Positions 1,278 through 32,254 are shown, numbered from the stretch's first letter. The stretch: 64,000 nt of DNA from Deltaproteobacteria bacterium (GCA_020349945.1 CP070704.1:409407-473406), one strand, 5' to 3'. The notes: a model not told the origin generated them from the sequence alone. Program-made: numbers and translations.

Positions 1278-1565
1278 GTGAGAGATTGCTGGTTTTAAGG
1301 GTGAATGCGTTTGCTGCTAGAGGGATTTCAATGGTATCGTACTGAGGTAGGTAGTGTAGGCAATACAGGTAAAAATGGCAAGGTGATTTCAATTCTCTCA
1401 AAAGAGCGGGGTCGGGGCTAAAAAGGGTGAGGGGTCAGTGCCACCATCAATTTCCCTTGACTCGGGCGGGCTTTTATCGTGTCATTATTTATAGGTATCA
1501 GGTATCCTGGTTCTGAAAGGAGGAATTTTTTCAACTCCTTTAATCCTAAGGAAAGGAGGAAAACC

Positions 1566-2012: not shown

Positions 2013-2495
2013 TAAGTAAGGGGTTTCTTTTCCCCGGAGCAATACCTCGAAGAGAGGCAGAAATGGGCTGAGACATCGTGGCAGCCGCGCCGAAGGGCAC
2101 AGCGATACTTCGCCCTCACTATCTTATTTTTCATTGCAGCCCTGTCTGCACGGCTCCCGATCCTCTGGCTGATCGCTGCGATTGTTTTTCTGGCTGCAGC
2201 GAGTATGAACTTCTAATTATTAAGAAGCCAGGTGTCTTCCCTGTACCTTCTAGGAAAAAGGAGCAAAGCCCAACCCTTGTGAGGATGATGTTGACCGGTT
2301 GGCTGGCATGCGGATTGTTGTTGTTCGGGCTATGGTTTTTACGCGTGGAGACATCTGCTCTTCCCCTGGTAGTGTGGGGACTCTCGGGTTTATTACAGTA
2401 TTGCCTAAGGTTGGCATGAAGCCAGATGGTTAAAGCTGGCGCTTTGCCCGCTGCTTATGGGGCACGTTAGACAGAGATGGAGGTTATGGAGGTAA

Positions 2496-2909
2496 ATGAT
2501 GAAAGCAGGTTTATGGATAGATCACAAAAAGGCCGTAATTGTTACCATACAAGGTGATCAGGTATCGAAAAAAGTAATACGATCAGACATCGAAAAACGA
2601 GTAAGACATTCTGGGGGTGCCAGATCATCAACTCCCTATGGTCCTCAAGACATTGCCTCGGAAAAGAAGAGAGACGAAAGATATGATCATCATCTTAAGG
2701 TTTATCATCGAAATATAGTAGATAGTATTAGAAAAGCCGAATCGATCTATATTTTTGGACCTGGAGAGGGAAAGGTGGAATTGAAAAAACACATAGAAAA
2801 AACGGCTGCTTTATCCAAGAACATCGCCGGGGTTGAGACCTCGGATAAATTGTCTGATGCGCAGATAGTCTCAAAGGTAAAAAGATTCTTCAGGTTTAAA
2901 GAATCATGA
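2496..2909 (+). CDS. hypothetical protein (possible host-attachment/eRF1-fold-like)
   Basis: 137-aa ORF with GGAGGT RBS. The motif pattern WIDHKKAVIV ... IYIFGPGEGKVELKKHI only loosely resembles the host-attachment/baeRF family. Confidence 0.5.
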   Translation: MMKAGLWIDHKKAVIVTIQGDQVSKKVIRSDIEKRVRHSGGARSSTPYGPQDIASEKKRDERYDHHLKVYHRNIVDSIRKAESIYIFGPGEGKVELKKHIEKTAALSKNIAGVETSDKLSDAQIVSKVKRFFRFKES

Positions 2910-3009
2910 TGAACCCTGTTATTCCGGAAAAAATCACCTCTTGTCTTTCATTCATATGGCCCAATTAAAAGGATACGTTGGGGCCTGAGCCTTCAGAAAT
3001 AGTACCCCG

Positions 3010-3579
3010 ATGCATAAAAGCCCAAAAGAACCGGAAAATACGATCCGTGAGCAATTTAGAAGGCATTTAAAAGAAACGCTTGCCTCGGAAGGTCAAAAGA
3101 GATGGAGCTTATCGGTAGATCTCGCTTCGGAACATGGTTATCACCCCGAGGAGAGGTACTCTTATAGGGACGGGAAAAATTACTTAATGAAGATAGGTGG
3201 AGCTATTATCTACTTAGAAAATATAAGCCACCAGGCATATGGAGAGATCAGGGAGCTGCTTGAAAGAAAAGATCAATTAAGAACAAGCGCTTCATTAATA
3301 GGAAACGCGCTCACCGTTGGGAGCAGCACCTTAGGTGGAGCATTGTTAGGTTACCTGCTAATACAAGTGGGGCTACATCCTCTGGTGTTGGTTCCGGCAA
3401 TAATAATCCCTCCAAGCCTGTGCATATACGATATGTTGAAGCAGGGCACAAAAGAGGCCGATAAACTAGCACAGATAGAAAAATCTCTGGAAAGGTTTAA
3501 AGAGAATATTTTCTACGACGATGCCGCGATAGGAAGACTTAATAGCAGGATTTACAGGAAAGTTCTCTCGGGTCATTAA
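3010..3579 (+). CDS. hypothetical membrane protein
   Basis: 189-aa ORF with a hydrophobic stretch (LGGALLGYLLIQVGLHPLVLVPAIIIPPSL). No recognisable family. Confidence 0.5.
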   Translation: MHKSPKEPENTIREQFRRHLKETLASEGQKRWSLSVDLASEHGYHPEERYSYRDGKNYLMKIGGAIIYLENISHQAYGEIRELLERKDQLRTSASLIGNALTVGSSTLGGALLGYLLIQVGLHPLVLVPAIIIPPSLCIYDMLKQGTKEADKLAQIEKSLERFKENIFYDDAAIGRLNSRIYRKVLSGH

Positions 3580-3601
3580 TTTTGGAAAGGAGGAATCGGA
3601 T

Positions 3602-3634
3602 GGGGGGTCAAATCCTTATTTTTGACCAATTCAG
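3602..3634 (+). repeat. M1 repeat copy a
   Basis: GGGGGGTCAAATCCTTATTTTTGACCAATTCAG. Stem GGTCAAA/TTTGACC. Starts 22 nt after the stop at 3579. Confidence 0.85.
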
Positions 3635-3814
3635 AGGTGAAGAATGAAAAGTGCAGTGATACTGACGGCGCTGTTGTGGAAAAGGACGGCCTCGTTAAAG
3701 GCAGAATCAATATCAAGGGCAAAATTTAAGAAGAATTGGGAGTAAAGAAGAGGGTAGGGGAAGACAGTTGTCCTGAACCGATGATAGTAAGCCAAAGCAC
3801 GAAGGGAGATTATC
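3635..3814 (+). repeat. decayed sORF plus M2 module
   Basis: Aligns to both ends of 6855-7125 with an internal deletion and a frame change. GAATTGGGAGTAAAGAAGAGGGTAGGGG...CACGAAGGGAG matches 11775-11845. Confidence 0.7.
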
Positions 3815-4348
3815 ATGAAAATTCTTGCGCTCATTGGTAGCCCCAGAAAAGGGAGCAACACGGATACGTTAGTTGACCAAACTTTGAAAGGTTCTGAGGT
3901 TAGTGGTCATACATACGAAAAGATCTATCTTTACAATTACGATATCGCTCCATGCATTGACTGCCGTAAGTGTAAGCAAGGAGATTATGTTTGTGTTATC
4001 AACGATGGCATGCAGGAAATTTATCCGAAAATGGATGGGGCGGATGTAATTATTTTCGGTACTCCAAATTATTGGTATGGGCCTACCGCAAAGATGAAGC
4101 TTCTTATTGATAGAATGCGTCCATATGTGGCAAACGGGAAGCTCAAAGGCAAAAAGGCAGTTGTTATAACCCCTGCTGCTGAGGGACCACATGCATGTGG
4201 TCCTCTTATGGAAATGTTTCGCATGTGTTTCAAGTATCTGGAAATGGAATTTGCAGGCAAGATTTCGGCTGCGGCATATGAGAGGGGAGAAGTCAAGAAT
4301 GACCAAAAAGCACTGAGAAATGCTTATGGTCTGGGGGCTGCTCTGTAG
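3815..4348 (+). CDS. iron-sulfur flavoprotein (NADPH-dependent FMN reductase/flavodoxin-like fold)
   Basis: MKILALIGSPRKGSNT start. Compact CX2CX2CX6C motif (CIDCRKCKQGDYVC). IIFGTPNYW motif. Confidence 0.8.
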   Translation: MKILALIGSPRKGSNTDTLVDQTLKGSEVSGHTYEKIYLYNYDIAPCIDCRKCKQGDYVCVINDGMQEIYPKMDGADVIIFGTPNYWYGPTAKMKLLIDRMRPYVANGKLKGKKAVVITPAAEGPHACGPLMEMFRMCFKYLEMEFAGKISAAAYERGEVKNDQKALRNAYGLGAAL

Positions 4349-4751
4349 GATTGATCATGCCTCGTTATCAGGGAATATTCAGAAGGCAATTGTCTCGATA
4401 AAGCAGGGCCCGGAATCTGAGGGGTGAGCAGTATTTATGAGATGGGAAGTTCACCCATTAAATGACGAGGCGAGAAAGCGTAATTTCAGGGGCGTCCCGG
4501 TTTACATATTTCAATCAATATTCGGTACGTTTCAACGTTACCCTGGAGTAAACATGAGCAGGTGAAGTCCGAAACCTTGAGATATGCTCCAACCCTGCTT
4601 TCACTCCTTGTCCCAAATATTTCTGTTGACTTTCTCCAAACAATTCGGTATCCATAAAATTCCTGCGTTTAAATGAGTTAGCCTAACAATCCAATCCTTA
4701 ACCTTTTGGAGATAGTCATGGAGGTAGGGTTCCAAAAGGTGCCGATACAAG

Positions 4752-4795
4752 GCCTCCAGAGAGGTTTTAGATCTCTTTGGAGGCTCCTTTGCTTT
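4752..4795 (+). terminator. orphan hairpin plus T-rich tail
   Basis: GCCTCCAGAGAG-9 nt-CTCTTTGGAGGC (12 bp, one G.T), followed by TCCTTTGCTTT. It lies ~400 nt from the nearest upstream stop. Confidence 0.35.
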
Positions 4796-4975
4796 AATCC
4801 TTGATAAGGGACAAACTATATACTACGGCATAAGAACTGATAAAGATATCATTCATGCTATTGAAATTTGTCCGGTGCTGGGTTGTTATTGTGGTGAAAG
4901 TCAGGGTGGAGATATCTCAAGTTGAGGGATCTATACCATTAAATTCCAATCAATAGCAATAAAAGGAGGGTTAAA

Positions 4976-5275
4976 ATGATAGGCATGGATTTCATCAGCT
5001 TTCTTATTTTGTTGATTATCAGTGTTGTTGTCTCCGGGATCTTACATTTCGCCTTTAAGTATTACATTGTACCGGGATGGGGGTCTTATTTCTCCAAAAT
5101 CCTGATCGGGTGGGTCGGTGCATGGTTAGGCTCCCCGGTATTTGGTCATTGGTGGGTGGGCTTAAATTATAAGGAAGTGTATATTGTCCCTGCAATTCTG
5201 GGTTCTTTGTTACTTCTGATCTTTGCAGTGGACTGTATTAAGACTTGTGCAACCACTTCCAAGGGTAAAGGGTAA
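4976..5275 (+). CDS. GlsB/YeaQ/YmgE-like small membrane protein
   Basis: 99 aa, AAAGGAGGG RBS, glycine-rich TM helices (ILIGWVGAWLGSPVFG). Confidence 0.55.
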   Translation: MIGMDFISFLILLIISVVVSGILHFAFKYYIVPGWGSYFSKILIGWVGAWLGSPVFGHWWVGLNYKEVYIVPAILGSLLLLIFAVDCIKTCATTSKGKG

Positions 5276-5370
5276 CTACCTGTGATCAATGGGTCGCGTC
5301 TGCACGTTTGGCAAAAAAGCTCATGAAAAAGTGCAGGTTTGACCCTGGGGGCGCATATCAGACACTCAGG

Positions 5371-5416
5371 AGGAGGCAGGGCCGCCGCGGCCCTGCCTCC
5401 TTATTGCCATTTTTCG
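5371..5416 (+). terminator. rho-independent terminator
   Basis: Near-perfect 15-bp GC-rich palindrome AGGAGGCAGGGCCGC/GCGGCCCTGCCTCCT, followed by TATTGCCATTTTT. Confidence 0.7.
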
Positions 5417-5523
5417 GTCAGGCATCCGCTGTGAGTCCTGGATTCTATTGACTACGAATCTCCGTGAAGAGAACTTCTGGCACCCAATTGGGGTATAAGG
5501 AAGGTTTCTTGCAGGAGGTAAGG

Positions 5524-6819
5524 ATGGTAGTTTTTATTAGCGACTTGCATTTTGTAGATGGTAGTGCAGGTGAGCACAATGTGCCTGTAGATGCCTTCAG
5601 GATATTTTTCGAAGACATATCAGGCACGGTTAACTGGTTAGTCAAAAAGGGGCGGGAGGTTAAGGAGATTAAAATTGTCTTTTTGGGCGATGTGTTTGAT
5701 CTATTAAGAACAGAGAAGTGGTTTGATTACCATGTAAATGAAAGGCCATGGGGAAATGATGAGGCAAAGATTGAGGCCCATGCCAATCATATCTTTGACG
5801 CGATCATCAAGAAGAACAAGAGAACCTTTGACTTGTTGAAGAGTAATTTGAAAGACGAGTTTGGTCTTCCTGCTGAGCCCGATAGGATCTATGTCCCGGG
5901 AAACCATGATCGGATCTGCAACAAATATAAGAGTCTGAGAGACAAGGCGTGTCAATCGCTTGGACTCCCACCTCGTACTGCCCCCTTTGAGCACCACTTT
6001 TTTGATGTAGATTATGGTGTCCATGCCCGCCACGGGCATGAATATGACAAATTCAACTATGAGGGGAGCACCTCTTACCAGTACGAAGACTATATGAGGA
6101 TGCCTATCGGTGACCCGATTACTACCGAGCTCGTGGCAAAACTGCCCTGGAAGATTATGGGTAAACCAGAGATCAAGAAACTGCCCAAAACACAGCGAAA
6201 AGCCTTAGAGAGAAACCTCCAGGAGATCGAAAACGTGAGACCATTCTCAGCTATCCTGGAATGGCTCCTTTATCAGGTAAAAAAGAACCCTTCTTTAAAA
6301 GAAGTCATTGAGGATGCGGTAGATGAGATTATAAAGGAGTTTAACAAATTACAGTTTATCGGCAAATGGTATGAACACCACGATAAATGGTCTGATTTCT
6401 GGGATGAGGCAGACAAAATACAGTCTGTGCTCTTCTTGCTTGAAAAATTTAAGGTCTTTCCCTCTGAAAAGCTCATGCCCCTTTTAGAAAGAGTGAAAAA
6501 TCGTTTTGCCAGGGATGATCTTTTGGAGGCTGCCACAGATGAATATTCATATTTAGACAATCGCATAAGATATGTGGTCTATGGACATACTCATGTGCCT
6601 GTTCAGGTGCCGCTGCGAACTGTTGAAGACCCTGCTGGTTCAAAAGAGCATATGTATTTAAATACAGGTACCTGGCGTACCGGATACTACAAATGCAAGG
6701 AAGGTTTGGGTTTCACTGGTTGGAAAAATCTCACCTACCTGGTCTTTTATAGAAAAGAGGAAAGAAAACTGGATTTCCCCACCTTTGAGACCTGGACAGG
6801 CACATTAAAAACGGTTTAG
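5524..6819 (+). CDS. calcineurin-like metallophosphoesterase with large helical insertion
   Basis: Motifs ISDLHF, FLGDVFD, PGNHDR, RHGHEYD and YGHTHVP. Start moved to the ATG at 5524 behind a GGAGGT RBS. Confidence 0.8.
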   Translation: MVVFISDLHFVDGSAGEHNVPVDAFRIFFEDISGTVNWLVKKGREVKEIKIVFLGDVFDLLRTEKWFDYHVNERPWGNDEAKIEAHANHIFDAIIKKNKRTFDLLKSNLKDEFGLPAEPDRIYVPGNHDRICNKYKSLRDKACQSLGLPPRTAPFEHHFFDVDYGVHARHGHEYDKFNYEGSTSYQYEDYMRMPIGDPITTELVAKLPWKIMGKPEIKKLPKTQRKALERNLQEIENVRPFSAILEWLLYQVKKNPSLKEVIEDAVDEIIKEFNKLQFIGKWYEHHDKWSDFWDEADKIQSVLFLLEKFKVFPSEKLMPLLERVKNRFARDDLLEAATDEYSYLDNRIRYVVYGHTHVPVQVPLRTVEDPAGSKEHMYLNTGTWRTGYYKCKEGLGFTGWKNLTYLVFYRKEERKLDFPTFETWTGTLKTV

Positions 6820-6823
6820 GAGA

Positions 6824-6854
6824 GGGCTCGAATCCTTATTTTTGACAAATTCAG
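6824..6854 (+). repeat. M1 repeat copy b
   Basis: GGGCTCGAATCCTTATTTTTGACAAATTCAG. Starts 4 nt after the stop at 6819. Followed by the intact sORF. Confidence 0.85.
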
Positions 6855-6863
6855 GGGTGAAGG

Positions 6864-7112
6864 ATGAAAGGTCTAGTGATAGTGGTGACGTTTCTGGTAA
6901 TGACCCTGTTTGAGGGTGCTGTTCTGGAGAAGGACTACCTCAGCAAAGGCAGGATCAATAATAAAAGCAAAACCGGTGAGCTGAAGGGATGGATGAAAAG
7001 GGACACACTTCAGCTTGACAGGGTGAACGTCTATGACAAGTATGGGAACATGAAGGGTTATTTAGTGAGGGATACCCTGAATCCCGATGCCTGGTTTTTT
7101 AAAGAGAATTGA
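6864..7112 (+). CDS. small secreted protein; the only intact copy of the repeat-associated sORF
   Basis: 82 aa with a signal-like N-terminus. Internal repeat KGWMKRDTLQLD / KGYLVRDTLNPD. Its 5' and 3' ends recur as decayed fragments at 3643-3760 and 11727-11783. Confidence 0.5.
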   Translation: MKGLVIVVTFLVMTLFEGAVLEKDYLSKGRINNKSKTGELKGWMKRDTLQLDRVNVYDKYGNMKGYLVRDTLNPDAWFFKEN

Positions 7113-7422
7113 GAAAGGGAGGGGTCGTTACACCAAGTTTCCGGTACATTCGAACAATCGTAGATCGCGGATCTGAATTCTTCTCTGCTTCACTCAAAGA
7201 TGGTTTTCATAAGATTATCTTCAGGCGTGGATTACACCGCAGTTCACCTTCAGAGGGAAAATAGCGAAAAACCTCAGGATTGGTAACAAAACCTTCCAGA
7301 AAGAGGGGGCTATTCTAAACGGCCTGAATACCTCAGGGCGGAATCATTCGAGCTCCTCTTAAATCATCCGGCTTACCTGGAAATATCAGGAGCAACGTGA
7401 CCATAAGTAAAGGATCAGAGTC

Positions 7423-8409
7423 ATGATCAACAAATACCGCGGCTGCTTGTTGGGGCTTGCAATCGGTGACGCATTGGGGGCGCCTGTTGAGTTTCTGAAA
7501 TTAGGGGAAATAAAGAGGCGTTACGGTAAAGATGGAATCAGGGAGTTTAGGCAATGGGGATCCCTCAGGCCCGGGTCCTATACAGATGATACCCAGATGT
7601 CACTGGCCCCCGCGGTTGGTTGTATAAGGGCCTGTCAGAGATGGAAAGAAACGGGAGTTTGTGATCCTGCATCACTTGTGTACCAGCGCTATCTGGAGTG
7701 GCTTGAATCCCAGAATGATCCATACCAGAGAAGGGCTCCGGGCAGTACATGTTTAAATGCGTTAAGAAATGGCCACATGGGAACGGTTGAAAAGGGAATC
7801 AATGACAGCAAAGGGTGCGGTGGAGTAATGCGCACTGCTCCCGTCGGTTTAGCCTTCCCACCCGGGAAAGCATTCCAGCAAGGTGCAGAATGCGCAGCCA
7901 TAACTCATGGACACCCCTGTGGATACTTATCAGCCGGGTTCCTCTCTGAAATGATATCCCGCATAAGTGAAGGGGCAACGCTCGAGAAGGCAATAAATGC
8001 GAGTATTGAGCTTTTGGCCACATATGACGGCCATAGGGAGACGCTCGAGAAGATTGAACTTGCCCGTTCCCTGTCCACTAGCAGCACCTCAGTCGAGGAA
8101 TGCATTCAAGCCATCGGGGAGGGATGGGTGGGGGAGGAGGCATTGGGCATTTCCCTCTATTGCTCCTTAAAATTCTCTGATAACTGGGAAGAAGGGGTAC
8201 TGAGCGCTATCAATCATTCGGGAGATAGTGACTCTACAGGGTCAATTACCGGTGCGATACTGGGGACCCTACTCGGTATCGGATCAATCCCAGACCGATG
8301 GGTCAAGGATGTAGAAGAATCAGAGAAGATCCAGAAGATAGCTCATGATATGTTCAGGATATTCAAAAAAGGAGAAGACCTTTCTCGCGATGAGTATCCA
8401 CCCTATTGA
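7423..8409 (+). CDS. ADP-ribosylglycohydrolase family protein (DraG/ARH-like)
   Basis: GCLLGLAIGDALGAPVEF, YTDDTQM and HSGDSDSTGSITGAILG are family hallmarks. Confidence 0.85.
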   Translation: MINKYRGCLLGLAIGDALGAPVEFLKLGEIKRRYGKDGIREFRQWGSLRPGSYTDDTQMSLAPAVGCIRACQRWKETGVCDPASLVYQRYLEWLESQNDPYQRRAPGSTCLNALRNGHMGTVEKGINDSKGCGGVMRTAPVGLAFPPGKAFQQGAECAAITHGHPCGYLSAGFLSEMISRISEGATLEKAINASIELLATYDGHRETLEKIELARSLSTSSTSVEECIQAIGEGWVGEEALGISLYCSLKFSDNWEEGVLSAINHSGDSDSTGSITGAILGTLLGIGSIPDRWVKDVEESEKIQKIAHDMFRIFKKGEDLSRDEYPPY

Positions 8410-8418
8410 CTGTAGGCT

Positions 8419-8444
8419 GGGGGTCTCTTTATTTTTGACAAATT
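8419..8444 (+). repeat. M1 repeat copy c
   Basis: GGGGGTCTCTTTATTTTTGACAAATT. Starts 9 nt after the stop at 8409. Confidence 0.75.
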
Positions 8445-8486
8445 GGTCTATAAAGGTAAATCCGTAGTACAAGGGGGCTTTGAAAC

Positions 8487-8717
8487 ATGAAATACCCGAG
8501 TGGGCATCAATTCTTCATGGCAGTGCTGATTTTACTTACTGCCCTGGGGATAACGAGCGGGTGCGATAGCGGCGAAAAGATGGTAGATGAGGTTACCGGG
8601 AACCGGGCTGTCAAACAGTACCATAAATCGAAAAAAGATATCGAAAAGATAACCGAGCAACAGGCTGAACGATATGAGGGCATCCCGGATGATGAAAGGG
8701 AAGATGAGAAACAGTAA
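8487..8717 (+). CDS. small lipoprotein
   Basis: 76 aa with lipobox-like LGITSGC after a hydrophobic N-terminus. Confidence 0.55.
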   Translation: MKYPSGHQFFMAVLILLTALGITSGCDSGEKMVDEVTGNRAVKQYHKSKKDIEKITEQQAERYEGIPDDEREDEKQ

Positions 8718-8741
8718 GGAAGTAGGATGGGGCGGAGCACT

Positions 8742-8905
8742 CATGAATTGTTGAAACTGCAGTCAGTGAAGACCAGGGTCAAACCTCGATCTATTGAAAA
8801 TTGGCCTGATACCTGATGCTGATAGGCTGAGATGCAAGGGAATTCTGCAAAAAAGATAAAGCCACTGGGCTATACAGGAATTCTCCTGCATGGTAATTGC
8901 AAGGC
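8742..8905 (+). repeat. M2/M3 composite copy
   Basis: CATGAATTGTTGAAACT (also at 14769). CCTGATGCTG..CAAGGGAATTCTGCA. Hairpin CTATACAGGA-ATTC-TCCTGCATGG at 8870-8893. Confidence 0.75.
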
Positions 8906-9045
8906 AAGGAATCTTTTTTGTCCGCCTTTTTTGGCAGATTTAACAATGAGCTAGTGCACTACAGAGAAGCTTTGGATCCATTTCCACACATAGTGAACGA
9001 AGTGAACAAGAGGCGAAAGGTATATGGATTGGTATATATCTGTGG

Positions 9046-9465
9046 TCAATCTGCGATCTTAAATTCGAGATTGGTCATGTCGCCTCTCTTGAATCCCATG
9101 GCATCAAAAAACTGAAGAAGAGTCCAGTCCCGCCAGTTTACAAGGGGGTAGACGGAATCAACACCTACCTTTTTCATATAGTTAAGCATCTCCTCGGTTA
9201 ACATTCGAGCTACACCCTTCCTCTGATAAGCTGGATCAACCCCTATGGTGTCTATCCAGCCGATATTTTCTGGCACACCATATTCCCATCCACTTGCGTC
9301 CCCAAGAATAAAACCGACAACCTTGCCCTCCATTTCCGCTACAAGAGACGGGAGTGGTGATCTTTTTCCTGTCATCTCAACCTTTCCCTCCCAGTATTCT
9401 GGCCTCCTTTCTCCAAGAACCAAGTTGTCAATCTCGATGATCCTCTCAAGATCATGTTCCCTCAT
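9046..9465 (-). CDS. GNAT family N-acetyltransferase
   Basis: VDPAYQRKGVARML acetyl-CoA motif. The frame stays open upstream (…NIPVIRA-MREHDL) with no canonical start, so the true start is uncertain (see findings). Confidence 0.75.
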   Translation of the reverse strand: MREHDLERIIEIDNLVLGERRPEYWEGKVEMTGKRSPLPSLVAEMEGKVVGFILGDASGWEYGVPENIGWIDTIGVDPAYQRKGVARMLTEEMLNYMKKVGVDSVYPLVNWRDWTLLQFFDAMGFKRGDMTNLEFKIAD

Positions 9466-9904
9466 TGCCCTAATAACCGGTATGTTTCCCGGTTCCTTTT
9501 CGATATCATTCTCCTTTCTTGTAATGAAATTAAGGTTATTGCGAATCTCCCTTCCCTGATTCGGATCCTACCTGATGAGAGTCAATTGAGCAGCCTTTTT
9601 ATACAACTATGATATATAAATCACTGTTCATGTGAAAAAATGTTTCCCCCAGTGGCAAAGGGTAAAGATCTGTAAAAGTCCGTGTTGATAAATTCTTAGG
9701 TTATATACGAGTACTCTTTAGACCAAACAGCCCTCCTGAGGTTCATACATGAGGTCATAACAGCATTACTTAAGGGTTATCGAGCCAGGTTCGAATTTCA
9801 CGGACATAGAATAGCCATTCAAGACTCAAAAATCCACGGAAAACATAAGAGAGGCTTTTTACAGGGGGATTCTGATAGACCAATGCAGCAGGGAACCTTC
9901 TAAA

Positions 9905-9960
9905 ATTTAAAATATATTAGACTACGGGGAAGTTTTTCTGCATAGTAATTGTTCGGCGTA
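9905..9960 (+). repeat. M3 copy
   Basis: CTACGGGGAA-GTTT-TTCTGCATAG (9922-9945), then TAATTGTTCGGC. Ends 8 nt before the ATG at 9966. Confidence 0.7.
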
Positions 9961-9965
9961 AGACG

Positions 9966-10469
9966 ATGATCGAGATTCGGGAGGAACAGCCAGAGGATAG
10001 AGAGGCAATCCGCGAAGTAAACATACGGGCCTTCGCTCAAAGCCATGAGGCCGACATCGTGGACGACCTGCGTCGGAACTGCAATGATCTGCTGTCCCTG
10101 GTGGCTACGATGCAGGACCAGGTTATTGGCCATATTCTTTTCAGTCCCGTCAGTATTGAGAGCGAAGCCAGGACGATCCAGGGGATGGCCCTAGCGCCAA
10201 TGGCAGTGCTGCCAGAGTTTCAGCAACGAGGGGTTGGCTCCGAGCTGGTCCGAACAGGGATCGCAGAGCTGAAGAGAAGGCTCTGTCCGTTTGTGATCGT
10301 CCTGGGCCATGCGGGATACTACCCTCGATTTGGCTTTGAACCTGCAGGCGTCTACGGAATCCGAAGCGAGTGGGAAGTGCCGGACGATGCATTCATGTTG
10401 CTTGTGCTGAACGAGTCAGAAATGCGCGGTATCTCTGGAGTGGCGAGGTATCGACCGGAATTCGCTTAA
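9966..10469 (+). CDS. GNAT family N-acetyltransferase (YhbS/COG3153-like)
   Basis: MIEIREEQPEDREAIREV..., LPEFQQRGVGSELV, VLGHAGYYPRFGF. Confidence 0.8.
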   Translation: MIEIREEQPEDREAIREVNIRAFAQSHEADIVDDLRRNCNDLLSLVATMQDQVIGHILFSPVSIESEARTIQGMALAPMAVLPEFQQRGVGSELVRTGIAELKRRLCPFVIVLGHAGYYPRFGFEPAGVYGIRSEWEVPDDAFMLLVLNESEMRGISGVARYRPEFA

Positions 10470-10539
10470 GAAAATGCTCATAAGCGCATTCACTACAGTG
10501 ACCATTAATGGGGAATCAAGGAAAAAGGAGGCTTTTCGT

Positions 10540-10932
10540 ATGGTGAAAACGTCTTTAGTCCATAGGATGGGGAATCTTGCTGTTCTGCTTCTGGCTTTTA
10601 GCTCTTTTATGGCGGGCCTGATGCAACCTTATCCTTTGCAGGCTCAAGAGGAGCGTCCGCAGGGGACCGTTGTCGGAAGAGTGAGAGCTCAAGCCGGGTA
10701 TGTTAAGGGGGCGAAGATTTATCAGCTTGATGCCGGTTCGGTATGGAAGCATGTGGCAACCACCGCCGGCTTACTGACCAAAAAGGGTCGGTATCGATTC
10801 ACCACAGATGCGGGAACCCATGATTTCAAGGCCCAGTGGGGTGGGAGAGAACAGATAATAAGGAATGTCAGGGTTGACCCAGATCCAAAGATCACGGAAC
10901 TTGACTTTGTGATCCCGCCCAGGGGCGATTGA
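10540..10932 (+). CDS. secreted hypothetical protein
   Basis: Start moved to the ATG at 10540 (AAAGGAGG RBS). Signal peptide LAVLLLAFSSFMAGL. Confidence 0.5.
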   Translation: MVKTSLVHRMGNLAVLLLAFSSFMAGLMQPYPLQAQEERPQGTVVGRVRAQAGYVKGAKIYQLDAGSVWKHVATTAGLLTKKGRYRFTTDAGTHDFKAQWGGREQIIRNVRVDPDPKITELDFVIPPRGD

Positions 10933-10950
10933 AATCAGAAAAAAGAATCC

Positions 10951-11000
10951 GGGGTGAGGCCCTCCAGAAACACGGCGGGCAGGCCCTCGAATCGTGGATT
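10951..11000 (+). repeat. R2 repeat copy a (5' part)
   Basis: GGGGTGAGGCCCTCCAGAAACACGGCGGGCAGGCCCTCGAATCGTGGATT. Confidence 0.7.
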
Positions 11001-11004
11001 AAAA

Positions 11005-11028
11005 GGGCTCAGATCTTTTTTTACATAG
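11005..11028 (+). repeat. M1 repeat copy l (degenerate)
   Basis: GGGCTCAGATCTTTTTTTACATAG, directly after repeat R2a. Confidence 0.5.
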
Positions 11029-11194
11029 AACTTTTGTTGAGGGGTTACCCATCAATGGTGCTGAGGGGATAGATAAGGGATCAGCGCCTCAAATTGGACT
11101 AAATGATTACTAAATCGTAAACAGTTTTGACAGGTCAACTAATCACAAACGGAGGGAGGAACACCGTAATGACTAAATAAAAAAGGAGGTAGGC

Positions 11195-11569
11195 GTGGCA
11201 CGAGAGATTAAAGAGGACCAAAAGTATAAAGACAGGTTGCTGAAGTTAATTCCGAGCGAGATTGTGGCTGCGTATTTGGTACTATCAGGGATAATTCCGG
11301 AGGGTAGTGCCAGGTGGGGGACACCTATCGTATCGATTGTCCTGCTGGTTCTCGTTCCCTTTTATCTCTGGAGAATGCTTGATGTTCGGCGAACCTCACA
11401 GCTCATAATCACAATGATCTCCTTTGTTGTATGGGTTTATTCGCTCGGAGGAGGTCCTTTCGAGGCCTGGGAATTGTATCAGCCGTGGATCGCTTCTGTC
11501 ATTTTGGTGTTATGGACACTGGTGATTCCGCTCGTGGTCAACCCAAAGCCACAGCCGGCCACATTGTAG
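11195..11569 (+). CDS. hypothetical membrane protein
   Basis: GTG start behind an AAGGAGG RBS. Three to four hydrophobic helices. Confidence 0.5.
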   Translation: MAREIKEDQKYKDRLLKLIPSEIVAAYLVLSGIIPEGSARWGTPIVSIVLLVLVPFYLWRMLDVRRTSQLIITMISFVVWVYSLGGGPFEAWELYQPWIASVILVLWTLVIPLVVNPKPQPATL

Positions 11570-11576
11570 TGGGCTT

Positions 11577-11604
11577 GGGGTCAGATCTTTTTTTTGACAA
11601 ATTT
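11577..11604 (+). repeat. M1 repeat copy d
   Basis: GGGGTCAGATCTTTTTTTTGACAAATTT. Starts 7 nt after the stop at 11569. Confidence 0.8.
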
Positions 11605-11719
11605 CATTCTGAATAAACCCTGTCAAGATGAATAACTGAGGGTGGTTGGCCTTGGGATTGGATAATGTTAAAGTTATAAATGGAATTCAATAAGTTAGGA
11701 TTCATCGTGTAAGTAATAA

Positions 11720-11907
11720 GTGAAGGATGAAGAGAGATACCCTGAATCCCCATGCCTGGTTTCTTAAAAAGAATTGGGAGTAAACAAGAGGGAAGGGCAT
11801 TGACAATTGCCCTGAAAACTGATGCTGGCTAAAACACAAGGGAATTCTGTAGAACATAAAATAAATCGGACTGTGCAGAATTTCTTCTGCATAGTAATTA
11901 TTAGGTC
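11720..11907 (+). repeat. sORF remnant + M2 + M3 (most complete composite, continuing from M1 copy d)
   Basis: GTGAAGGATGAAGAGAGATACCCTGAATCCCCATGCCTGGTTTCTTAAAAAGAATTGGGAGTAA. Hairpin CTGTGCAGAA-TTTC-TTCTGCATAG at 11871-11894. Ends ATTAGGTC. Confidence 0.8.
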
Positions 11908-11924
11908 TGTATAAGGAGAACTCT

Positions 11925-12272
11925 ATGGAGCTGAACGCTATTATGGGTCATATCCTCGATGCTATTCCATATCCAGTCGTCTTCGTAGACACGGAGCACG
12001 TTATTCGGTACCTGAACAAACGAGCTCGGTACCATTACCACCAGGAACGCGGATACCGGGATTTGATTGGGAAGAGCGTGTTCGATTGCCATTGTCCGGA
12101 ATCAAGGAAAATGATAGAAGAAGCGGTCGAAGGATTGAGGAACCACGGACAGGAGATCTTTCTGAAGGTCAACGCCCGAAACGAGAGGGTTTACATCACG
12201 CCCGTGCGTGATGGGGACGGGAACCTGGTGGGCTACTTCGAACGGTTTGAGAAGAACTTCACCAAGACCTAA
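11925..12272 (+). CDS. PAS domain protein
   Basis: 115 aa, AAGGAG RBS. ILDAIPYPVVFVDTEHVIRYLN ... GNLVGYFERF matches the PAS fold pattern. Confidence 0.65.
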   Translation: MELNAIMGHILDAIPYPVVFVDTEHVIRYLNKRARYHYHQERGYRDLIGKSVFDCHCPESRKMIEEAVEGLRNHGQEIFLKVNARNERVYITPVRDGDGNLVGYFERFEKNFTKT

Positions 12273-12364
12273 AGGGGAGGCTGAAGAGGGTGCAATATGA
12301 TTATGAAAGCAGGAGAGCGAGTAGGGAAATGAGAAGATCAGTGTCTGAGAAGGAGGCGAGTGTT

Positions 12365-12958
12365 ATGGGACGTTTGGTGAAACTAGTAGGCGCTGTAGGG
12401 GTTTGCTTACTCTGCTCCACTCCGGGCCTGAGCCACAGTCAGAATCCTCAGGATCTGCTAGACCAGCTTGGTCAGTCCGTCCAGGAGATAAAGACAATTG
12501 ATGCCCAGATGCAAGCCAACCTAGAGCTCAAACAGCAGCATGAAAAGGAGTATGAGAGATTGCAGGAGGACGGAGAGCAGTATGAGCAGTATGGGGAAGA
12601 GTACGATTCTGGGAAGGCCCATTTTGAAAGTGCCTGTGGTGGACCATTACCAGAAGCACAATACGACCCCTGCAATCAAGAGAAGGCTGAACTTGACGCT
12701 ATGTGGGAGGAATTGGATCAGTGGAGAAGCCGTCGCATTTCCTGGAAAGAAGACCTTGACAGGGCGGAGCGTGAACGTGTTGGGGAAGCCAAACGACTGG
12801 GCGCCAGGCGCAAATCTTTAGTGGAGCAGGCAAACCGCATATTGGCGGAGCTGCAAAGGCTGAGGCAGTTCAGGAGGGCAAACCAGGAATGTGCTGGTCT
12901 GCAATCATTGGAGGAAATCCATCATTGTATGCGGCGACTATGGGAAGGTACCCGCTAG
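12365..12958 (+). CDS. secreted coiled-coil protein
   Basis: Start moved to the ATG at 12365 (GAAGGAGG RBS). Signal peptide, then E/Q/K-rich heptad-like sequence. Confidence 0.5.
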   Translation: MGRLVKLVGAVGVCLLCSTPGLSHSQNPQDLLDQLGQSVQEIKTIDAQMQANLELKQQHEKEYERLQEDGEQYEQYGEEYDSGKAHFESACGGPLPEAQYDPCNQEKAELDAMWEELDQWRSRRISWKEDLDRAERERVGEAKRLGARRKSLVEQANRILAELQRLRQFRRANQECAGLQSLEEIHHCMRRLWEGTR

Positions 12959-12998
12959 ATTGTTACCGAATCCCAATGGAAACAAGGAATGCCTGCCT

Positions 12999-13026
12999 GG
13001 GCCCAAATCCTTATTCTTGACAAATC
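12999..13026 (+). repeat. M1 repeat copy e
   Basis: GGGCCCAAATCCTTATTCTTGACAAATC. Starts 40 nt after the stop at 12958. Followed by R2b. Confidence 0.75.
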
Positions 13027-13046
13027 GTGTTCTGAAGCCAATTGAA

Positions 13047-13123
13047 GGGTCAGGCCCTCCAGAAACACGGCGGGCAAGCCTTGTATCGTGAATTTTCCCT
13101 CATGTAAGTGATGCGGCCATGAG
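13047..13123 (+). repeat. R2 repeat copy b (longest)
   Basis: GGGTCAGGCCCTCCAGAAACACGGCGGGCAAGCCTTGTATCGTGAATTTTCCCTCATGTAAGTGATGCGGCCATGAG. Confidence 0.8.
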
Positions 13124-13461
13124 ATCACCCGATCTTTGTCCCTGGTGAACTACCTCCTGGCCGAAGAACTCACTCCAAACCCCGGTCTACTAACTGACTG
13201 CCTGAAAGTTTGTTGGTATGCTTTCTTATTATCAACTTGACTCATGTGGACAATTCGTGCATGGTTGTATGCCCTTATGGGTTGGCGGCGCTCCCTGATT
13301 CTCTTCATATGGGTGATAGACCTGCTCCCCTTGGCGAAGAAAGTGAAATCAGGCGGGGTTTTCCTGGGGGACAGGAGATAGAAAAGGTATTATTTGAACT
13401 CTATGGGAAAGGGAAAAGGATGTTACTTTTTTGGCATGATGACCTGAGGTTAAGGAGACTG

Positions 13462-14265
13462 ATGATGAAGGGTATTAAAACAGGTTTGGCCCTTCTGATT
13501 GTTGCTCATTCCATGGCTTCAGGATTACCATGTTATGCGCAGCCTAATATCCCGGAGGACAATATGCCCTCTAATATCCCTGCCACTATCAGGGAGAAGA
13601 TTGAGGGGCTCTATTCAGTTGACCCGGTAAAGCGGGCTGAGGCAGCAGCAGATCTGGGAGTAATGGGTCACAGGGCAGCCCCTGCTATACCATTTCTGAT
13701 AGGAATGTTCGGCGACGAGATTTTGTTAGTCGAAGATCCGACCGGCTCTTTTAGATACGCTCGTTACCCTGTGGACAGTGCGAATACCTGCCCTGCGTCT
13801 CAAGCAGCAAAGGCGCTCCGCAAGATTGGCAAACCGGCTGTAGAGCCTTTGATTGCCTCCCTGAGGAGTGAGAATTGGATTTTCCGAGCGCACGCGTCAG
13901 CGACACTTGGGGGAATGGAGGATCCCCGTGTAGTGGAGCCACTGATCCTCACACTAGCCGATGAGAATAGGATTGTCCGGATAAATGCGGCAATAGCACT
14001 GGGGCGGATAAGGGCTTTACGCTCAGTGGACCCCCTGATTGCCGCGCTGGGGGATAAGGATTGGCTTGTGCGGAGGTATGTAGCACGCTCACTGGGGGAA
14101 CTTGGAGATACAAGGGCCGTAAAACCGCTCATTGATGCACTGAGTGATAAGGGATTTCGCGCAGCAGATGATGCCGCGGAGGCACTGCACAAGATAACGG
14201 GCCAGGAATTTGGTCTGGAGCCCGAAAAATGGCAGAGGTGGTGGGAGAAAAACAGGGAAGAATGA
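13462..14265 (+). CDS. HEAT-repeat (PBS-lyase-type) protein, secreted
   Basis: Start at 13462 (AAGGAG RBS). Repeated D.RVR..AA.ALG.IGD..AV.PLI.AL units. Confidence 0.75.
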   Translation: MMKGIKTGLALLIVAHSMASGLPCYAQPNIPEDNMPSNIPATIREKIEGLYSVDPVKRAEAAADLGVMGHRAAPAIPFLIGMFGDEILLVEDPTGSFRYARYPVDSANTCPASQAAKALRKIGKPAVEPLIASLRSENWIFRAHASATLGGMEDPRVVEPLILTLADENRIVRINAAIALGRIRALRSVDPLIAALGDKDWLVRRYVARSLGELGDTRAVKPLIDALSDKGFRAADDAAEALHKITGQEFGLEPEKWQRWWEKNREE

Positions 14266-14327
14266 GGATTTATGAAAACGCGTCAAGTGTGCTTTTGGCT
14301 CATAGGTGCAGGGAAATCAGAAGGGTT

Positions 14328-14603
14328 TTATCTGTCGACAAACTCGACCTTCTTTATGCCTTCATAACGAAGAAATTCCTCCAGAAGTTCGTCCATTATC
14401 TTCCTCTGTTCAAGCCATGCAATCGGTGCACAGCCTGGACAAGAGGGTGTTCTTCTTCTAAAATCCACATTGATAAGGAGTTTTTGCTCGCCTTCAATAT
14501 AATCAATCGACTTAATAAGGCCGAGATCTAATACAGACATCTCCGTTTCTATGTCCCTAATATTACCGAGAATCCGTATAATATCTTCCTTTTCCGGTAC
14601 CAT
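14328..14603 (-). CDS. DUF59/MIP18-family Fe-S assembly-type protein
   Basis: 91 aa, GGAGGG RBS. DIETEMSVLDLGLI and CPGC motifs. Confidence 0.7.
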   Translation of the reverse strand: MVPEKEDIIRILGNIRDIETEMSVLDLGLIKSIDYIEGEQKLLINVDFRRRTPSCPGCAPIAWLEQRKIMDELLEEFLRYEGIKKVEFVDR

Positions 14604-14720
14604 AAACCCTCCTCTGTTCTTTATGTGTAGGGAAATCGCAAGAAGCCTTTTTTTAACGAAGAAATGTAGGAGTGGTTAGGCTTGTGTGTCAAGCAAAAAC
14701 CTGCCGCGACATAGGGAGCA

Positions 14721-14752
14721 GGGGCCGAAACCTTTATTTTCGACAAATTCAG
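14721..14752 (+). repeat. M1 repeat copy f
   Basis: GGGGCCGAAACCTTTATTTTCGACAAATTCAG. Stem CGAAA/TTTCG, with G-C where copy a has A-T. Confidence 0.8.
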
Positions 14753-14763
14753 CCCGTTGCTTC

Positions 14764-14847
14764 CGGACCATGAATTGTTGAAACTCCGTAAAAAAGATAA
14801 AACCATTGGACTACAGGGAAATTCTCCTGCATAGTGGTTGTTAGGCC
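14764..14847 (+). repeat. M3 copy with internal deletion
   Basis: CATGAATTGTTGAAACTCCGTAAAAAAGATAAAACC...CTACAGGGAA-ATTC-TCCTGCATAG, then TGGTTGTTAGGCC. Confidence 0.75.
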
Positions 14848-14891
14848 TAAAGCCTTCTCATTACTCAAATGATATGCTAGGCACATGAAAA

Positions 14892-15011
14892 ATGGATCAT
14901 TGCACGGACCTCAATAAAATGGATAGTATTTACAGAAATATCCCGTTGGATGAAATTCCATGGAATGTGGAGGTGCCGCCGAAGGCATGTGCTGTTATTT
15001 TTTTCCGTTGA
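14892..15011 (+). pseudogene. N-terminal fragment of a class I SAM-dependent methyltransferase
   Basis: 39-codon ORF. MDSIYRNIPLDEIPWNVEVPP resembles the usual N-terminus of this family; the sequence then diverges and stops. It lies directly behind an M3 repeat. Confidence 0.35.
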
Positions 15012-15051
15012 GAGCGTGTTTAGAATAGTAAAATAGGAAGGAGATCTTAGC

Positions 15052-15939
15052 ATGCCGCTCATTCGAACTCCCGAGGATCGATTTGCCAATATTCCTGACT
15101 TTCCCTTCGAGCCTCATTATGTCGAGATTAACGGAGCGCGCATTCATTATTTAAATGAGGGATCTGGCAAGGTTATTCTCTGCGTCCATGGAGAACCGAG
15201 CTGGAGCTTTCTGTACAGAAAGATGATACCCATTCTCTCACAAAAGCACAGGGCAATAGCATTAGACTTCATCGGCTTCGGCCGATCAGATAAGTTTAGC
15301 AAGCGGAGGGAATACACCTTCAAGATGCACCGCGATACCCTGCTCAGGTTTATAGAAAAGCTCAATCTCGACAAGATCAACATCGTGGTCCAGGATTGGG
15401 GTGGTCTGATCGGCTTAAGGGTGGTCAGCATGATACCCGAACGCTTTGCTCGACTTATCATCATGAATACCGCTCTGCCCACTGGCGAAGAAAAGCTGAG
15501 TAGGGCTTTCCGCGTATGGCGATTTTTCGTGAAGGTGGTACCCAGCCTTCCTATTGGCAGAATTTTGAGGTTGGGTACGGTGCAACCCATGTCGCCTGAA
15601 GTTGTTTCCGCCTATAATGCTCCATTCCCGAGCAGAAAATACAAACAAGGCGCTAGGGCCTGGCCGCTGATGGTCCCCGTCAAGCCGATGTTCAAGGCAG
15701 CACCAGAAATGAAAAAGGCAAGGGAAGTGCTATCGGAGTGGAATAAGCCGACACTCGTGATGTTTTCTGACCGTGATCCAATCACCAGGGGTGGAGACCG
15801 GTTCTTCAGAGAGCTTATCCCTACCGCGAAAGATCAACCAGAAATAGTTATAAAAGGTGCAGGTCATTTCCTTCAAGAGGATAAGGGTGAGGAAATAGCT
15901 CAGCATATTCTGGATTTTATCGAGCGAACACTGTTATGA
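15052..15939 (+). CDS. haloalkane dehalogenase (alpha/beta hydrolase)
   Basis: [56 protein letters not shown]. Confidence 0.85.
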
Positions 15940-18357: not shown

Positions 18358-19761
18358 ATGGAAGAAAAATCAATCAAGAATCGATGGGTGGTTATGGTAG
18401 CGTTTTTTTCCTTGCTTGCCATGCTCGGTGTGGTTTGTGCGGAGGAGATGGTAACAAGCAGCTACAGCCCTGTTGTCATCAAAGAACTCTTTGCAACGAC
18501 CATGGCTCGCATGAAGAATGCCAAAGCGGAAGTGATGAAGCGCCAGATGGATTTACTCAATGAACGGTATGACTTAAGCAACCGCCCGGCTGAAAGCGTG
18601 ATGATGTCAGGAGGAGCAAAGGCTGTCCAGGAAGGGGTTCGGGTGAAACTGCCCGAGGACATGACCTGGGTACAGCTAGCAGAAATGACTCCGGAAGAGA
18701 TTCGAGAAAAGGACCTTTGGCCTCAAGGGCTTTTCCCTCTACCCCATCCAAACCACCCAGAAGGCGGCATGCTGTTCCCTCAATTCCATATCGATGAGAT
18801 AAAGAAACAGGAAGGAAGAGATCTAGCCCGGTTCGACCTTGATTATGATCTGCCGGATCATTTTCTGCCCGAGTTTCCTCCACCCATGTATCTCACCACA
18901 CGGCCGGACCTTGGCGATGTATCTCAGGGAAGACTTGTCACTATTATGAATTACTACGAGTTATTCAATGGAATCCTGAATCCAAAACAGGTCGAGGGCC
19001 TCAGGTTGCTTGTCACACCCTTCCCTCAGCAGCAGTTCAACCAGACTGAAGACCGCCGCTCTGAGCTGCCTTCCAGGGGTGTCATATGCTTTGACTGCCA
19101 TGTCAACGGGCATACGAATGGTGCCACTCATCTCGTCGGTGATATTCGCCCTCAAGAATTCAGGCACCGTCTAGATACACCGCCGCTCCGGGGGGTGAAC
19201 ATCCAGCGCCTGTTCGGTTCTCAACGGGCCTTAAAAACTGTGGAGGACTTCACGGAGTTTGAACAGCGGGCTGCCTATTTCGACGGCGATCCAGTGATCG
19301 GCACAAAAAAAGGACTCAACATCCTCGAGCGGGCGAGCCAGGTCCACTTTATGGCCGAGTTCCAGGCCCTCCTGGACTTTCCCCCAGCCCCAAAGCTCAA
19401 CATCTATGGCAAGTTAGACCCGAAAAAGGCTACCAGGTCCGAACTGCGAGGGCAAGAGATCTTCCTTGGCAAGGCCAAGTGCGCTGTTTGCCACCCTGCT
19501 CCTTACTATACGGATAATCTCATGCACAACCTGAGGATAGAACGTTTTTACAAACCACGTATGATTAATGGGCGTATGGCAGCTGCAGACGGACCTATCA
19601 AGACCTTCCCACTTCGAGGCATCAAGGATTCGCCCCCTTACCTGCATGATGGCCGGTTGTTAACCCTGGAAGATACCGTAGAGTTTTTCAACCTGGTTCA
19701 GGGACTCAAGCTGACGAAGGAGGAAAAGAGGGATCTGGTGAATTTTATGCGGGCACTTTAG
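18358..19761 (+). CDS. di-haem cytochrome c peroxidase/MauG-family protein
   Basis: Signal peptide. Two CXXCH motifs (CFDCH, CAVCH). Confidence 0.75.
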   Translation: MEEKSIKNRWVVMVAFFSLLAMLGVVCAEEMVTSSYSPVVIKELFATTMARMKNAKAEVMKRQMDLLNERYDLSNRPAESVMMSGGAKAVQEGVRVKLPEDMTWVQLAEMTPEEIREKDLWPQGLFPLPHPNHPEGGMLFPQFHIDEIKKQEGRDLARFDLDYDLPDHFLPEFPPPMYLTTRPDLGDVSQGRLVTIMNYYELFNGILNPKQVEGLRLLVTPFPQQQFNQTEDRRSELPSRGVICFDCHVNGHTNGATHLVGDIRPQEFRHRLDTPPLRGVNIQRLFGSQRALKTVEDFTEFEQRAAYFDGDPVIGTKKGLNILERASQVHFMAEFQALLDFPPAPKLNIYGKLDPKKATRSELRGQEIFLGKAKCAVCHPAPYYTDNLMHNLRIERFYKPRMINGRMAAADGPIKTFPLRGIKDSPPYLHDGRLLTLEDTVEFFNLVQGLKLTKEEKRDLVNFMRAL

Positions 19762-19822: not shown

Positions 19823-19848
19823 GGGGGTCAGATCTTTATTCTTGGCAC
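19823..19848 (+). repeat. M1 repeat copy h
   Basis: GGGGGTCAGATCTTTATTCTTGGCAC, just after the terminator at 19788-19816. Confidence 0.7.
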
Positions 19849-19974
19849 ATGGAGCGTATCGCCTCATGCTCAGGAATTTTCTAAAAGCAGTGTGTGAAAT
19901 GCATTTGTGTTTGGATCTTCAATGGGGTATTTTCACGTATGGAGAGAATGCTATGTCGTCAGAGGAGGTGTGTT

Positions 19975-24775: not shown

Positions 24776-24802
24776 GGGGCCAAATCTTTATTTCTAACAA
24801 AG
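24776..24802 (+). repeat. M1 repeat copy i
   Basis: GGGGCCAAATCTTTATTTCTAACAAAG. Starts 13 nt after the stop at 24762. Confidence 0.65.
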
Positions 24803-24912
24803 TGAGCCCTTTGTTTGTCGCTAAGTGATTATCAAAAGGCCGCTCAGGATATTTTCAGGACAAAAAGGCAATGTGTGTACGGGCGGTATTGCAAAGAAGT
24901 GAGGAGAGTACA

Positions 24913-26316: not shown

Positions 26317-26337
26317 TATGCAGTTTTGAAACACGAC

Positions 26338-26425
26338 TCAGGATATTTTCATCTTTCTCAGTTTGACTTTTTTAAACATTTTTAGAATGCCGGCCTGAAA
26401 GGGTGCAGCGTAGGTCCCCTTTTCG
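26338..26425 (+). repeat. R3 direct repeat, left copy
   Basis: TCAGGATATTTTCATCTTTCTCAGTTTGACTTTTTTAAACATTTTTAGAATGCCGGCCTGAAAGGGTGCAGCGTAGGTCCCCTTTTC. Confidence 0.8.
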
Positions 26426-32218: not shown

Positions 32219-32254
32219 GTTGCCTTCTTGCGTTGCGCTAGTGAATTTGTAAAG

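Follow-up and report, generated by a model that had tools for sequence, protein, structure and literature searches.

The locus considered here raises the question of how a run of short, functionally unrelated genes, with related repeats in many of the gaps, came to stand side by side in a bacterial genome. It lies in a stretch of 64,000 nucleotides (nt) from a Deltaproteobacteria bacterium (GCA_020349945.1, CP070704.1:409407-473406), which at its full length we call the window and from whose first letter all positions are counted. A first-pass annotation had likened the genes at 2496-15939, and more loosely those up to about 34 kb, to a sedentary chromosomal integron cassette array or another site-specific gene-capture hotspot, each gene being bounded by shared repeat modules designated M1 and M3. 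We consider it likely that M1 is instead a family of relics derived from the terminal inverted repeat (TIR) of TIRYT/TIRtron elements, and that the genes form a rearrangement-prone chromosomal stretch and not a cassette array.

M1 and the ends of Y1 transposase elements

The M1 pattern has seven matches in the window and none in 100 shuffles, and nhmmer recovers ten solid copies, all on the + strand, the first at 3604 and the last at 33836, with no solid copy in 34-64 kb. Seven of these align without gaps to the 23-mer GGGGTCAAATCTTTATTCTTGAC at 17-21 of its 23 positions (2-6 differences), and the other three, found by the nhmmer profile, align to it only with gaps; matches to the 23-mer with six or fewer mismatches did not occur in 20 shuffles. 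The copies measure 23-31 nt, contain TTGACA and have a stem of 5-7 bp, which is partly maintained through compensatory changes. Eight of the ten sit 5-63 nt past the stop codon of a + strand gene, and those at 14722 and 33836 lie among minus-strand genes, yet are + oriented.

A scan of the M1 pattern against one genome per GTDB species gave at least 118 loci (L numbers are our handles for loci outside the window), distributed over Desulfobacterota, Atribacterota, Patescibacteria, Spirochaetota, Chlamydiota, Actinomycetota and others; among the matches listed, the 23-mer is almost invariant across phyla. It occurs there solo, as inverted doublets of ~58 nt with a spacer of 7-30 nt (mostly ~12), and as inverted pairs ~1.04 kb apart, which surround an open reading frame (ORF) starting with MARPLRIQYPGA and together with it make up an element of ~1.05 kb. 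Such a transposase gene lies inside inverted copies of the 23-mer in, for example, L118 (2766-3823), L033, L043, L068 and L082. The L118 ORF encodes 330 amino acids (aa) with HFHLLV and YQGRYKS motifs, matches the Pfam families Y1_Tnp (PF01797, 1.1e-11) and Bac_DnaA_C (PF08299, 3.3e-05), and scores 71.6 bits against REP_Tyr_transpos of NCBIfam, under the 80-bit cut-off. Among the matches listed, a Y1 transposase gene stands beside M1 in 24 of the 118 loci. The transposases combining Y1 and DnaA_C domains beside M1 are mostly 43-58% identical to the L118 protein, while the 23-nt end is near-identical across phyla.

TIRYT elements (named for TIR-associated tyrosine transposases), or TIRtrons, have been described as RAYT-like transposases flanked by TIRs with a common GGGGWSAS, the TIR families being solo, dimeric or clustered (Di Nocera et al. 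2013, PMC3733652), and the subclass 2.1 TnpA-REP proteins with Bac_DnaA_C/HTH (helix-turn-helix) tails are TIRYT (Quentin et al. 2018, PMC6006769). The canonical M1 head, GGGGTCAA, fits GGGGWSAS at seven of the eight positions, and most copies miss the last one. A full fit is seen in the M1 copies at 11577 and 19824 (GGGGTCAG) and in the heads of M2 (GGGGTGAG and GGGTCAGG), a further repeat which, given this type of head, is probably a second family of M1's kind. A literature search for the 23-mer returned nothing relevant, and a scan of IMG/VR with M1 gave only 2 matches, which indicates that the M1 element is not phage-borne.

As in the window, solo M1 in foreign genomes, among the matches listed, tends to follow a co-oriented gene (48 vs 27), with a median distance of 46 nt to the stop codon, and where several solo copies are co-located in a foreign locus they share a single orientation (7 of the 7 loci noted, tallied by eye). 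Of 150 foreign M1 copies, 29 have the 6-mer at their 5' border repeated no more than 45 nt away, as against 1.9% of random positions; loci with this feature include L019, L025, L038, L044, L053, L071, L081, L082, L092, L100 and L107. The usual layout, in which flank, truncated GGGGTC... head, the same flank and full M1 follow one another, is possibly a footprint of the transposition mechanism.

We propose that the source of M1 would be a TIRYT element of ~1.05 kb, bounded by inverted copies of the 23-mer and encoding a Y1 HUH (IS200-like, RAYT-related) transposase with a C-terminal DnaA-type HTH. The transposase, encoded at another genomic site and acting in trans, or since lost, would have bound and cut the GGGG head, and copies would have spread into gene-free gaps with a preference for positions just past stop codons. 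Most would by now be inactive copies of some age that have accumulated 2-6 changes per 23 nt, but their heads may still be fragile or recombinogenic, so that insertions, adjacent deletions and block replacements accumulate beside them; it is this accumulation that would give the region its cassette-like look. The uniform + orientation would then stem from strand-specific single-strand DNA transposition or from local duplication, and not from array polarity.

Several points weigh against this proposal. No TIRYT gene is present in the window or in ~110 kb from close relatives, which makes a cognate transposase in the lineage hypothetical. M2 and M3 were not found outside this lineage, and it is by inference that they are connected with the transposase. 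When the orientation of 88 solo M1 copies from foreign loci was set against GC skew in a crude test, the ratio was 49:39, which is not significant and leaves an explanation of the uniform orientation by replication strand unsupported. Finally, simple random dispersal does not explain why M1 is limited to 3.6-34 kb of the window.

The location of M1 past stop codons, its TTGACA and its partly conserved stem would also be expected of host cis-regulatory modules under selection and without ties to mobility, in which M1 would terminate transcripts, stabilise RNA by its hairpin or donate a -35 box, and M3 would contribute part of a leader or promoter; in this regard, M3 ends 8-27 nt before a start codon in three of its four window copies and also in an L119 copy before the FMN reductase gene. 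We think this unlikely to be the general explanation. Promoter and terminator scans of 2-20.5 kb miss M1 and show no excess over shuffles, M1 keeps its + orientation among minus-strand genes, and in other genomes it forms the ends of a transposase element. Moreover, M1 copies are present or absent between relatives, and M3, viewed as a structured RNA, has only a weak 10-bp hairpin nearly without covariation (one compensatory pair). Individual repeat copies may nevertheless have been co-opted for regulation.

Composite elements and variation among close relatives

Self-comparison and alignment place M1 at the left end and M3 at the right end of composite intergenic elements of 75-490 nt (Table 1). 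Because an M1 precedes three of the four M3 copies by 50-420 nt, and no sizeable gene separates the pair, the two repeats bracket intergenic elements, and not genes as the first-pass annotation had it. Its picture of one repeat per gene, typically an M1 behind it, was right as to the reality of the repeats but overstated their frequency, since of the 17 genes in 2.5-16 kb some 5 have a solid M1 directly behind them, with 2 weak cases in addition. In two M3 copies out of four the upstream part begins with the motif ATTNTTGAAAC (at 8747 and 14774), which is related to an 82-nt repeat at 26326-26407 and 30391-30472 (78% identity) that opens with TTGAAAC; one copy of the latter follows an SDR gene and the other borders the window-only gene 30545-31180 on its left.

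Three contig sets from close relatives, 92-97% identical to the window, span its positions 1-41 kb apart from 18.2-21.2 kb, and their genes follow the window's order throughout 6.2-18.2 kb and 21-41 kb. Over the former interval the order is identical to that of L126 (~93% identity), and the M1 units themselves come and go, as is apparent from two that are polymorphic between relatives. A 75-nt M1 mini-element of L126, L127 and L128 is missing at window position 16477, and a 56-nt one at 12981-13036, between CCAATGGAA and CCAATTGAA, is missing in L126 (window 12972-13045 vs L126 6680-6700), where a single CCAATTGGAA directly precedes the M2 head. The 56-nt unit has the appearance of an insertion, beside another repeat head, that duplicated 9 nt of its target. 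Other differences from L126 are M3 length variants, a decayed copy of a small ORF (sORF) in the window, and a 1.16-kb deletion truncating the methyltransferase gene in the window; at the latter the aligned segments overlap by 15 nt (14966-14980), which we read as microhomology at the deletion junction.

Over 21-41 kb three M1 copies are kept in L129 (95-97% identity), and the indels consist of a VapB remnant, several pieces of 50-150 nt, a 684-nt deletion that removes the N-domain of an aldehyde:ferredoxin oxidoreductase in the window, and one window-only gene. The loss of DNA relative to the relatives at many points, some within genes, suggests a deletion bias in the window genome; such losses are found at 14966-14980, 39684, 4442-4451 and 23654, and the genes hit are the methyltransferase, the oxidoreductase N-domain, an FG-GAP repeat gene and a VapB piece. 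For window 21.2-41.3 kb the aligned sequence is a separate contig, of 56 kb, from the metagenome that also contains L126. The synteny break between window 18168 and L126 13244, on a 65-kb relative contig, has no repeat at the breakpoint, and the relative goes on with copper ATPase, Lon and HSP20 genes.

Variation on the scale of genes is clustered at 1.4-4.6 kb (relative to L119 and L132), with one more case at 30.4 kb. A 1.5-kb Polbeta/HEPN toxin-antitoxin block, accompanied by M1-like and M2 copies in the relatives, has left only remnants in the window, and the site behind the FMN reductase gene exists in three states: L132 has the FG-GAP gene intact, the window has it gutted, and in L119 M1-M2-ECH takes its place. 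By our count, 8 of ~19 indels of at least 50 nt involve M1, M2 or M3 sequence, which makes up a few percent of the DNA, and four gene-scale indels have a junction at, or no more than ~25 nt from, a GGGGTC-type head. Sequence comparison of this kind partly supports a hotspot of structural variation at repeat heads, located at the left edge (1.4-4.6 kb) and at 30.4 kb.

The same indels would be consistent with a non-canonical form of gene capture, in which a Y1 HUH transposase inserts and excises gene blocks at the GGGGWSAS heads of M1 and M2 via single-stranded intermediates and thereby builds the gene run; in its favor, the Polbeta/HEPN block of the relatives is flanked by heads in direct orientation. 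However, the junctions fall at no fixed position of the repeats, usually just one of the two is near a head, and the blocks do not correspond to a gene plus one repeat. Simple deletions that have no repeat at their junctions account for many of the remaining indels, and several of these fall within genes; the core of the flagged array is stable in the relatives, and no transposase gene is nearby, all of which makes gene capture of this type improbable in our view. What stands of the earlier suggestion of another site-specific gene-capture hotspot is a hotspot of variation at repeat heads and a repeat, M1, of the recombinase-recognition type, HUH enzymes being among the recombinases that the annotation had named; the cassette system does not. 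Toxin-antitoxin pairs not seen in the window occur in equivalent neighborhoods (L119 1798-2803, L129 2585-3011, L121 1109-1646, L123 9378-9966), and the types found in relatives and more distant genomes are Polbeta/HEPN, VapB remnants, PhdYeFM/ParE and VapBC.

The integron question

A classical sedentary chromosomal integron, or an integrase-less attC cluster (CALIN), with M1 and M3 as attC sites and the genes as cassettes, would account for the small, unrelated and mostly co-oriented genes, the toxin-antitoxin modules of the relatives and the one M3 copy that ends in GTTAGGC. Nevertheless, we regard it as very improbable. Searches with Pfam and NCBIfam detected no integrase, resolvase or HUH domain in any sizeable window ORF. 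Nor did Pfam detect a recombinase, which the first-pass annotation had proposed to seek upstream, among ten L132 ORFs, eight of them representing the + strand of ~6 kb upstream of the window start, where other minus-strand ORFs were left unscanned; the recognizable ones among the eight encode TrmO, HU and TM2. The minus-strand ORF at 1-1080 was considered as an integrase and has no match in Pfam or NCBIfam, and a 392-aa minus-strand ORF of L132, considered as a transposase, proved to be the FG-GAP repeat protein.

The repeats themselves are equally unlike attC sites. A heuristic scan for RYYYAAC...GTTRRRY pairs of 50-150 nt with ends paired on folding found 0 candidates for attC-like R''-L''/L'-R' hairpins in the window, compared with 0-5 in shuffles, and M1, given its length and short stem, is far under attC size. 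The GTTAGGC that had been singled out as an integron core site is indeed present at 14840-14846, but only one of the four M3 ends fits GTTRRRY, a motif that by our arithmetic is expected by chance ~60 times per strand in 64 kb. ARAGORN found no tRNA or tmRNA in the window to mark an integration site.

Gene order points the same way. Over 6.2-18.2 kb, the greater part of the flagged interval, the genes come in an unchanged order in relatives ~93% identical to the window, with no presence or absence of gene-plus-repeat units, an outcome that the first-pass annotation had itself named as refuting its reading. The FMN reductase and metallophosphoesterase genes, examined as candidates for repeat-borne genes, have distant homologues (L133-L211 and L121-L125, respectively) with other neighbors and no M1, M2 or M3, and hence the genes do not travel with the repeats. 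The lack of an integrase among the ORFs scanned and of attC-like hairpins in the window, together with the stable gene order, led us to abandon the integron cassette array.

Gene content and likeness to known systems

The genes named in the first-pass annotation were confirmed, those so marked in Table 1 by Pfam; the methyltransferase fragment is the start of a longer gene, and with 15 of the 17 genes in 2.5-16 kb on the + strand its description of their orientation was accurate (Table 1). Further on, 16-36 kb contains peroxiredoxin, acyltransferase, MFS, SDR, CBS and NAPRTase genes, and the genes of 36-64 kb belong to ordinary core metabolism (IlvD, HisF, FBPase, DegP), again based on Pfam. 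The gene at 18358-19761 is placed between peroxiredoxin genes and encodes a 467-aa protein without a Pfam match, with a weak C-terminal MauG/di-haem peroxidase-like match in NCBIfam (4.7e-10). The 82-aa product of the sORF at 6864-7112, for which neither Pfam nor NCBIfam has a family, appears to have a hydrophobic N-terminus resembling a signal sequence and is kept in relatives; L126 also has an intact 73-aa paralogue (5411-5632), which in the window has decayed. No Rfam family reached the gathering threshold anywhere in the window.

Table 1. Repeats, composite elements, variable segments and genes of the window
Feature	Position	Strand	Remarks
M1	3604-3634	+	25 nt past stop of ORF 3010-3579; 2 mismatches to canonical 23-mer
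M1	6824-6854	+	5 nt past metallophosphoesterase stop; left end of M1-sORF unit; orthologs L119 8767, L126 566
M1, variant with 3-nt gap	8420-8446	+	Left end of composite element 8420-8905
M1, GGGGTCAG head	11577-11605	+	Left end of composite element 11577-11907
M1	12999-13029	+	Within 56-nt mini-element 12981-13036
M1	14722-14752	+	Left end of short M1-M3 element 14722-14848; 5' of minus-strand gene
M1	19824-19854	+	After gene 18358-19761 and its terminator-like hairpin
M1	24776-24806	+	Kept in relative L129 (3921)
M1	32193-32223	+	Kept in relative L129 (10850)
M1	33836-33866	+	Between two minus-strand genes; kept in L129 (12497)
GGGGTC...GGGGTCAG head remnants	1408-1439	+	Site of 1.5-kb Polbeta/HEPN block in relatives
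M2, GGGGTGAGGCC head of GGGGWSAS type	10952-11000	+	Weak M1-like stretch next, at 11005
M2	13047-13094	+	Repeat search and comparison with relative
M3	8836-8905	+	Right end of composite element 8420-8905
M3, solo	9885-9958	+	8 nt upstream of GNAT start codon
M3	11834-11907	+	Right end of composite element 11577-11907
M3 ending in GTTAGGC	14775-14848	+	Right end of short element 14722-14848
Composite element	8420-8905		76-aa ORF inside
Composite element	11577-11907		Decayed sORF copy inside
Composite element	14722-14848		Without ORF
Composite element, truncated	3604-3800		
Composite element, truncated	6824-7114		Holds intact 82-aa sORF
Three-ORF block (2078-2419, 2496-2909, 3010-3579)	2020-3589	+	Window only, between MscL stop and stretch just 5' of M1; in L119 and L132 M1 directly after MscL stop
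Window-only segment	30374-31204	+	Repeat D3 30391-30472 and gene 30545-31180; left junction at GGGGTCGG head; L129 has 78-nt M2-tail remnant
FG-GAP repeat gene remnants	4352-4975	-	392 aa and intact in L132; in window, 1.25 kb lost from interior at 4442-4451
FMN reductase	3815-4348	+	Pfam
Transgly_assoc/YeaQ-like gene	4976-5275	+	Pfam
Metallophosphoesterase	5464-6819	+	Pfam
sORF, 82 aa	6864-7112	+	Directly behind M1 6824; kept in relatives
Decayed paralogous copies of 82-aa sORF	3645-3745 and 11606-11780		
ADP-ribosylglycohydrolase	7423-8409	+	Pfam
Lipoprotein-like ORF, 76 aa	8487-8717	+	Inside composite element 8420-8905
GNAT	9046-9465	-	Pfam
GNAT	9966-10469	+	Pfam
PAS	11925-12272	+	Pfam
Coiled-coil gene	12290-12958	+	
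HEAT	13210-14265	+	Pfam
DUF59-like gene	14328-14603	-	Pfam
Methyltransferase fragment	14885-14980	+	First ~30 codons of 214-aa gene, intact in relative L126
Alpha/beta hydrolase	15052-15939	+	Pfam

Apart from removing a false integron lead, these results indicate that a cassette-like picture of small co-oriented genes with a common repeat in the gaps can come from relics of TIRYT-type transposon ends. For the study of HUH transposases, the locus draws attention to a 23-nt end that is kept across phyla while the transposases go down to ~45% identity. The duplications of flank plus head 5' of M1, and the enrichment of indel junctions at heads in this Desulfatiglandales-like lineage, offer testable handles on how TIRYT elements cut and move. 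Should the gene-capture reading be true after all, it would represent a single-strand, HUH-based counterpart of integron gene capture.

With integrons and CALINs the locus shares the small, unrelated, co-oriented genes, a repeat in many gaps, toxin-antitoxin genes in relatives and the plausibility of folded single-strand recognition, but it lacks IntI, the attC architecture and unit-wise variation of cassettes, and its repeats bracket gaps. MITEs and the IS200/IS605-derived PATEs are likewise small non-autonomous elements (75-490 nt here) that are polymorphic between relatives, with one 9-nt flank duplication in the present case; unlike theirs, the M1 and M3 ends are unrelated and are not inverted repeats, and the interior is highly variable and includes an sORF. 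The REP/REPIN and RAYT system is similar in that short hairpin-bearing extragenic repeats, mostly just downstream of genes, are tied to a single-copy IS200-like Y1 transposase, and the ~58-nt inverted doublets of other genomes are REPIN-like. However, M1 has no GTAG/CTAC tag, the transposase falls below the NCBIfam cut-off for RAYT, and M1 is near-identical across phyla whereas REPs are species-specific. The TIR families of TIRYT/TIRtrons (PMC3733652, PMC6006769) have in common with M1 a GGGG(T)(C)A-type head, intergenic copies that are solo, dimeric or clustered and, in other genomes, inverted copies flanking a Y1 HUH transposase with a DnaA_C/HTH tail. The window differs from them in having diverged solo copies only, in one orientation and without a transposase gene, joined to the lineage-specific M3, sORF and M2 as composite elements, and with heads that in most copies are off at the last GGGGWSAS position. 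The M1 copies of the window belong to this known, little-studied TIRYT-type kind of repeat, as a new member of it.

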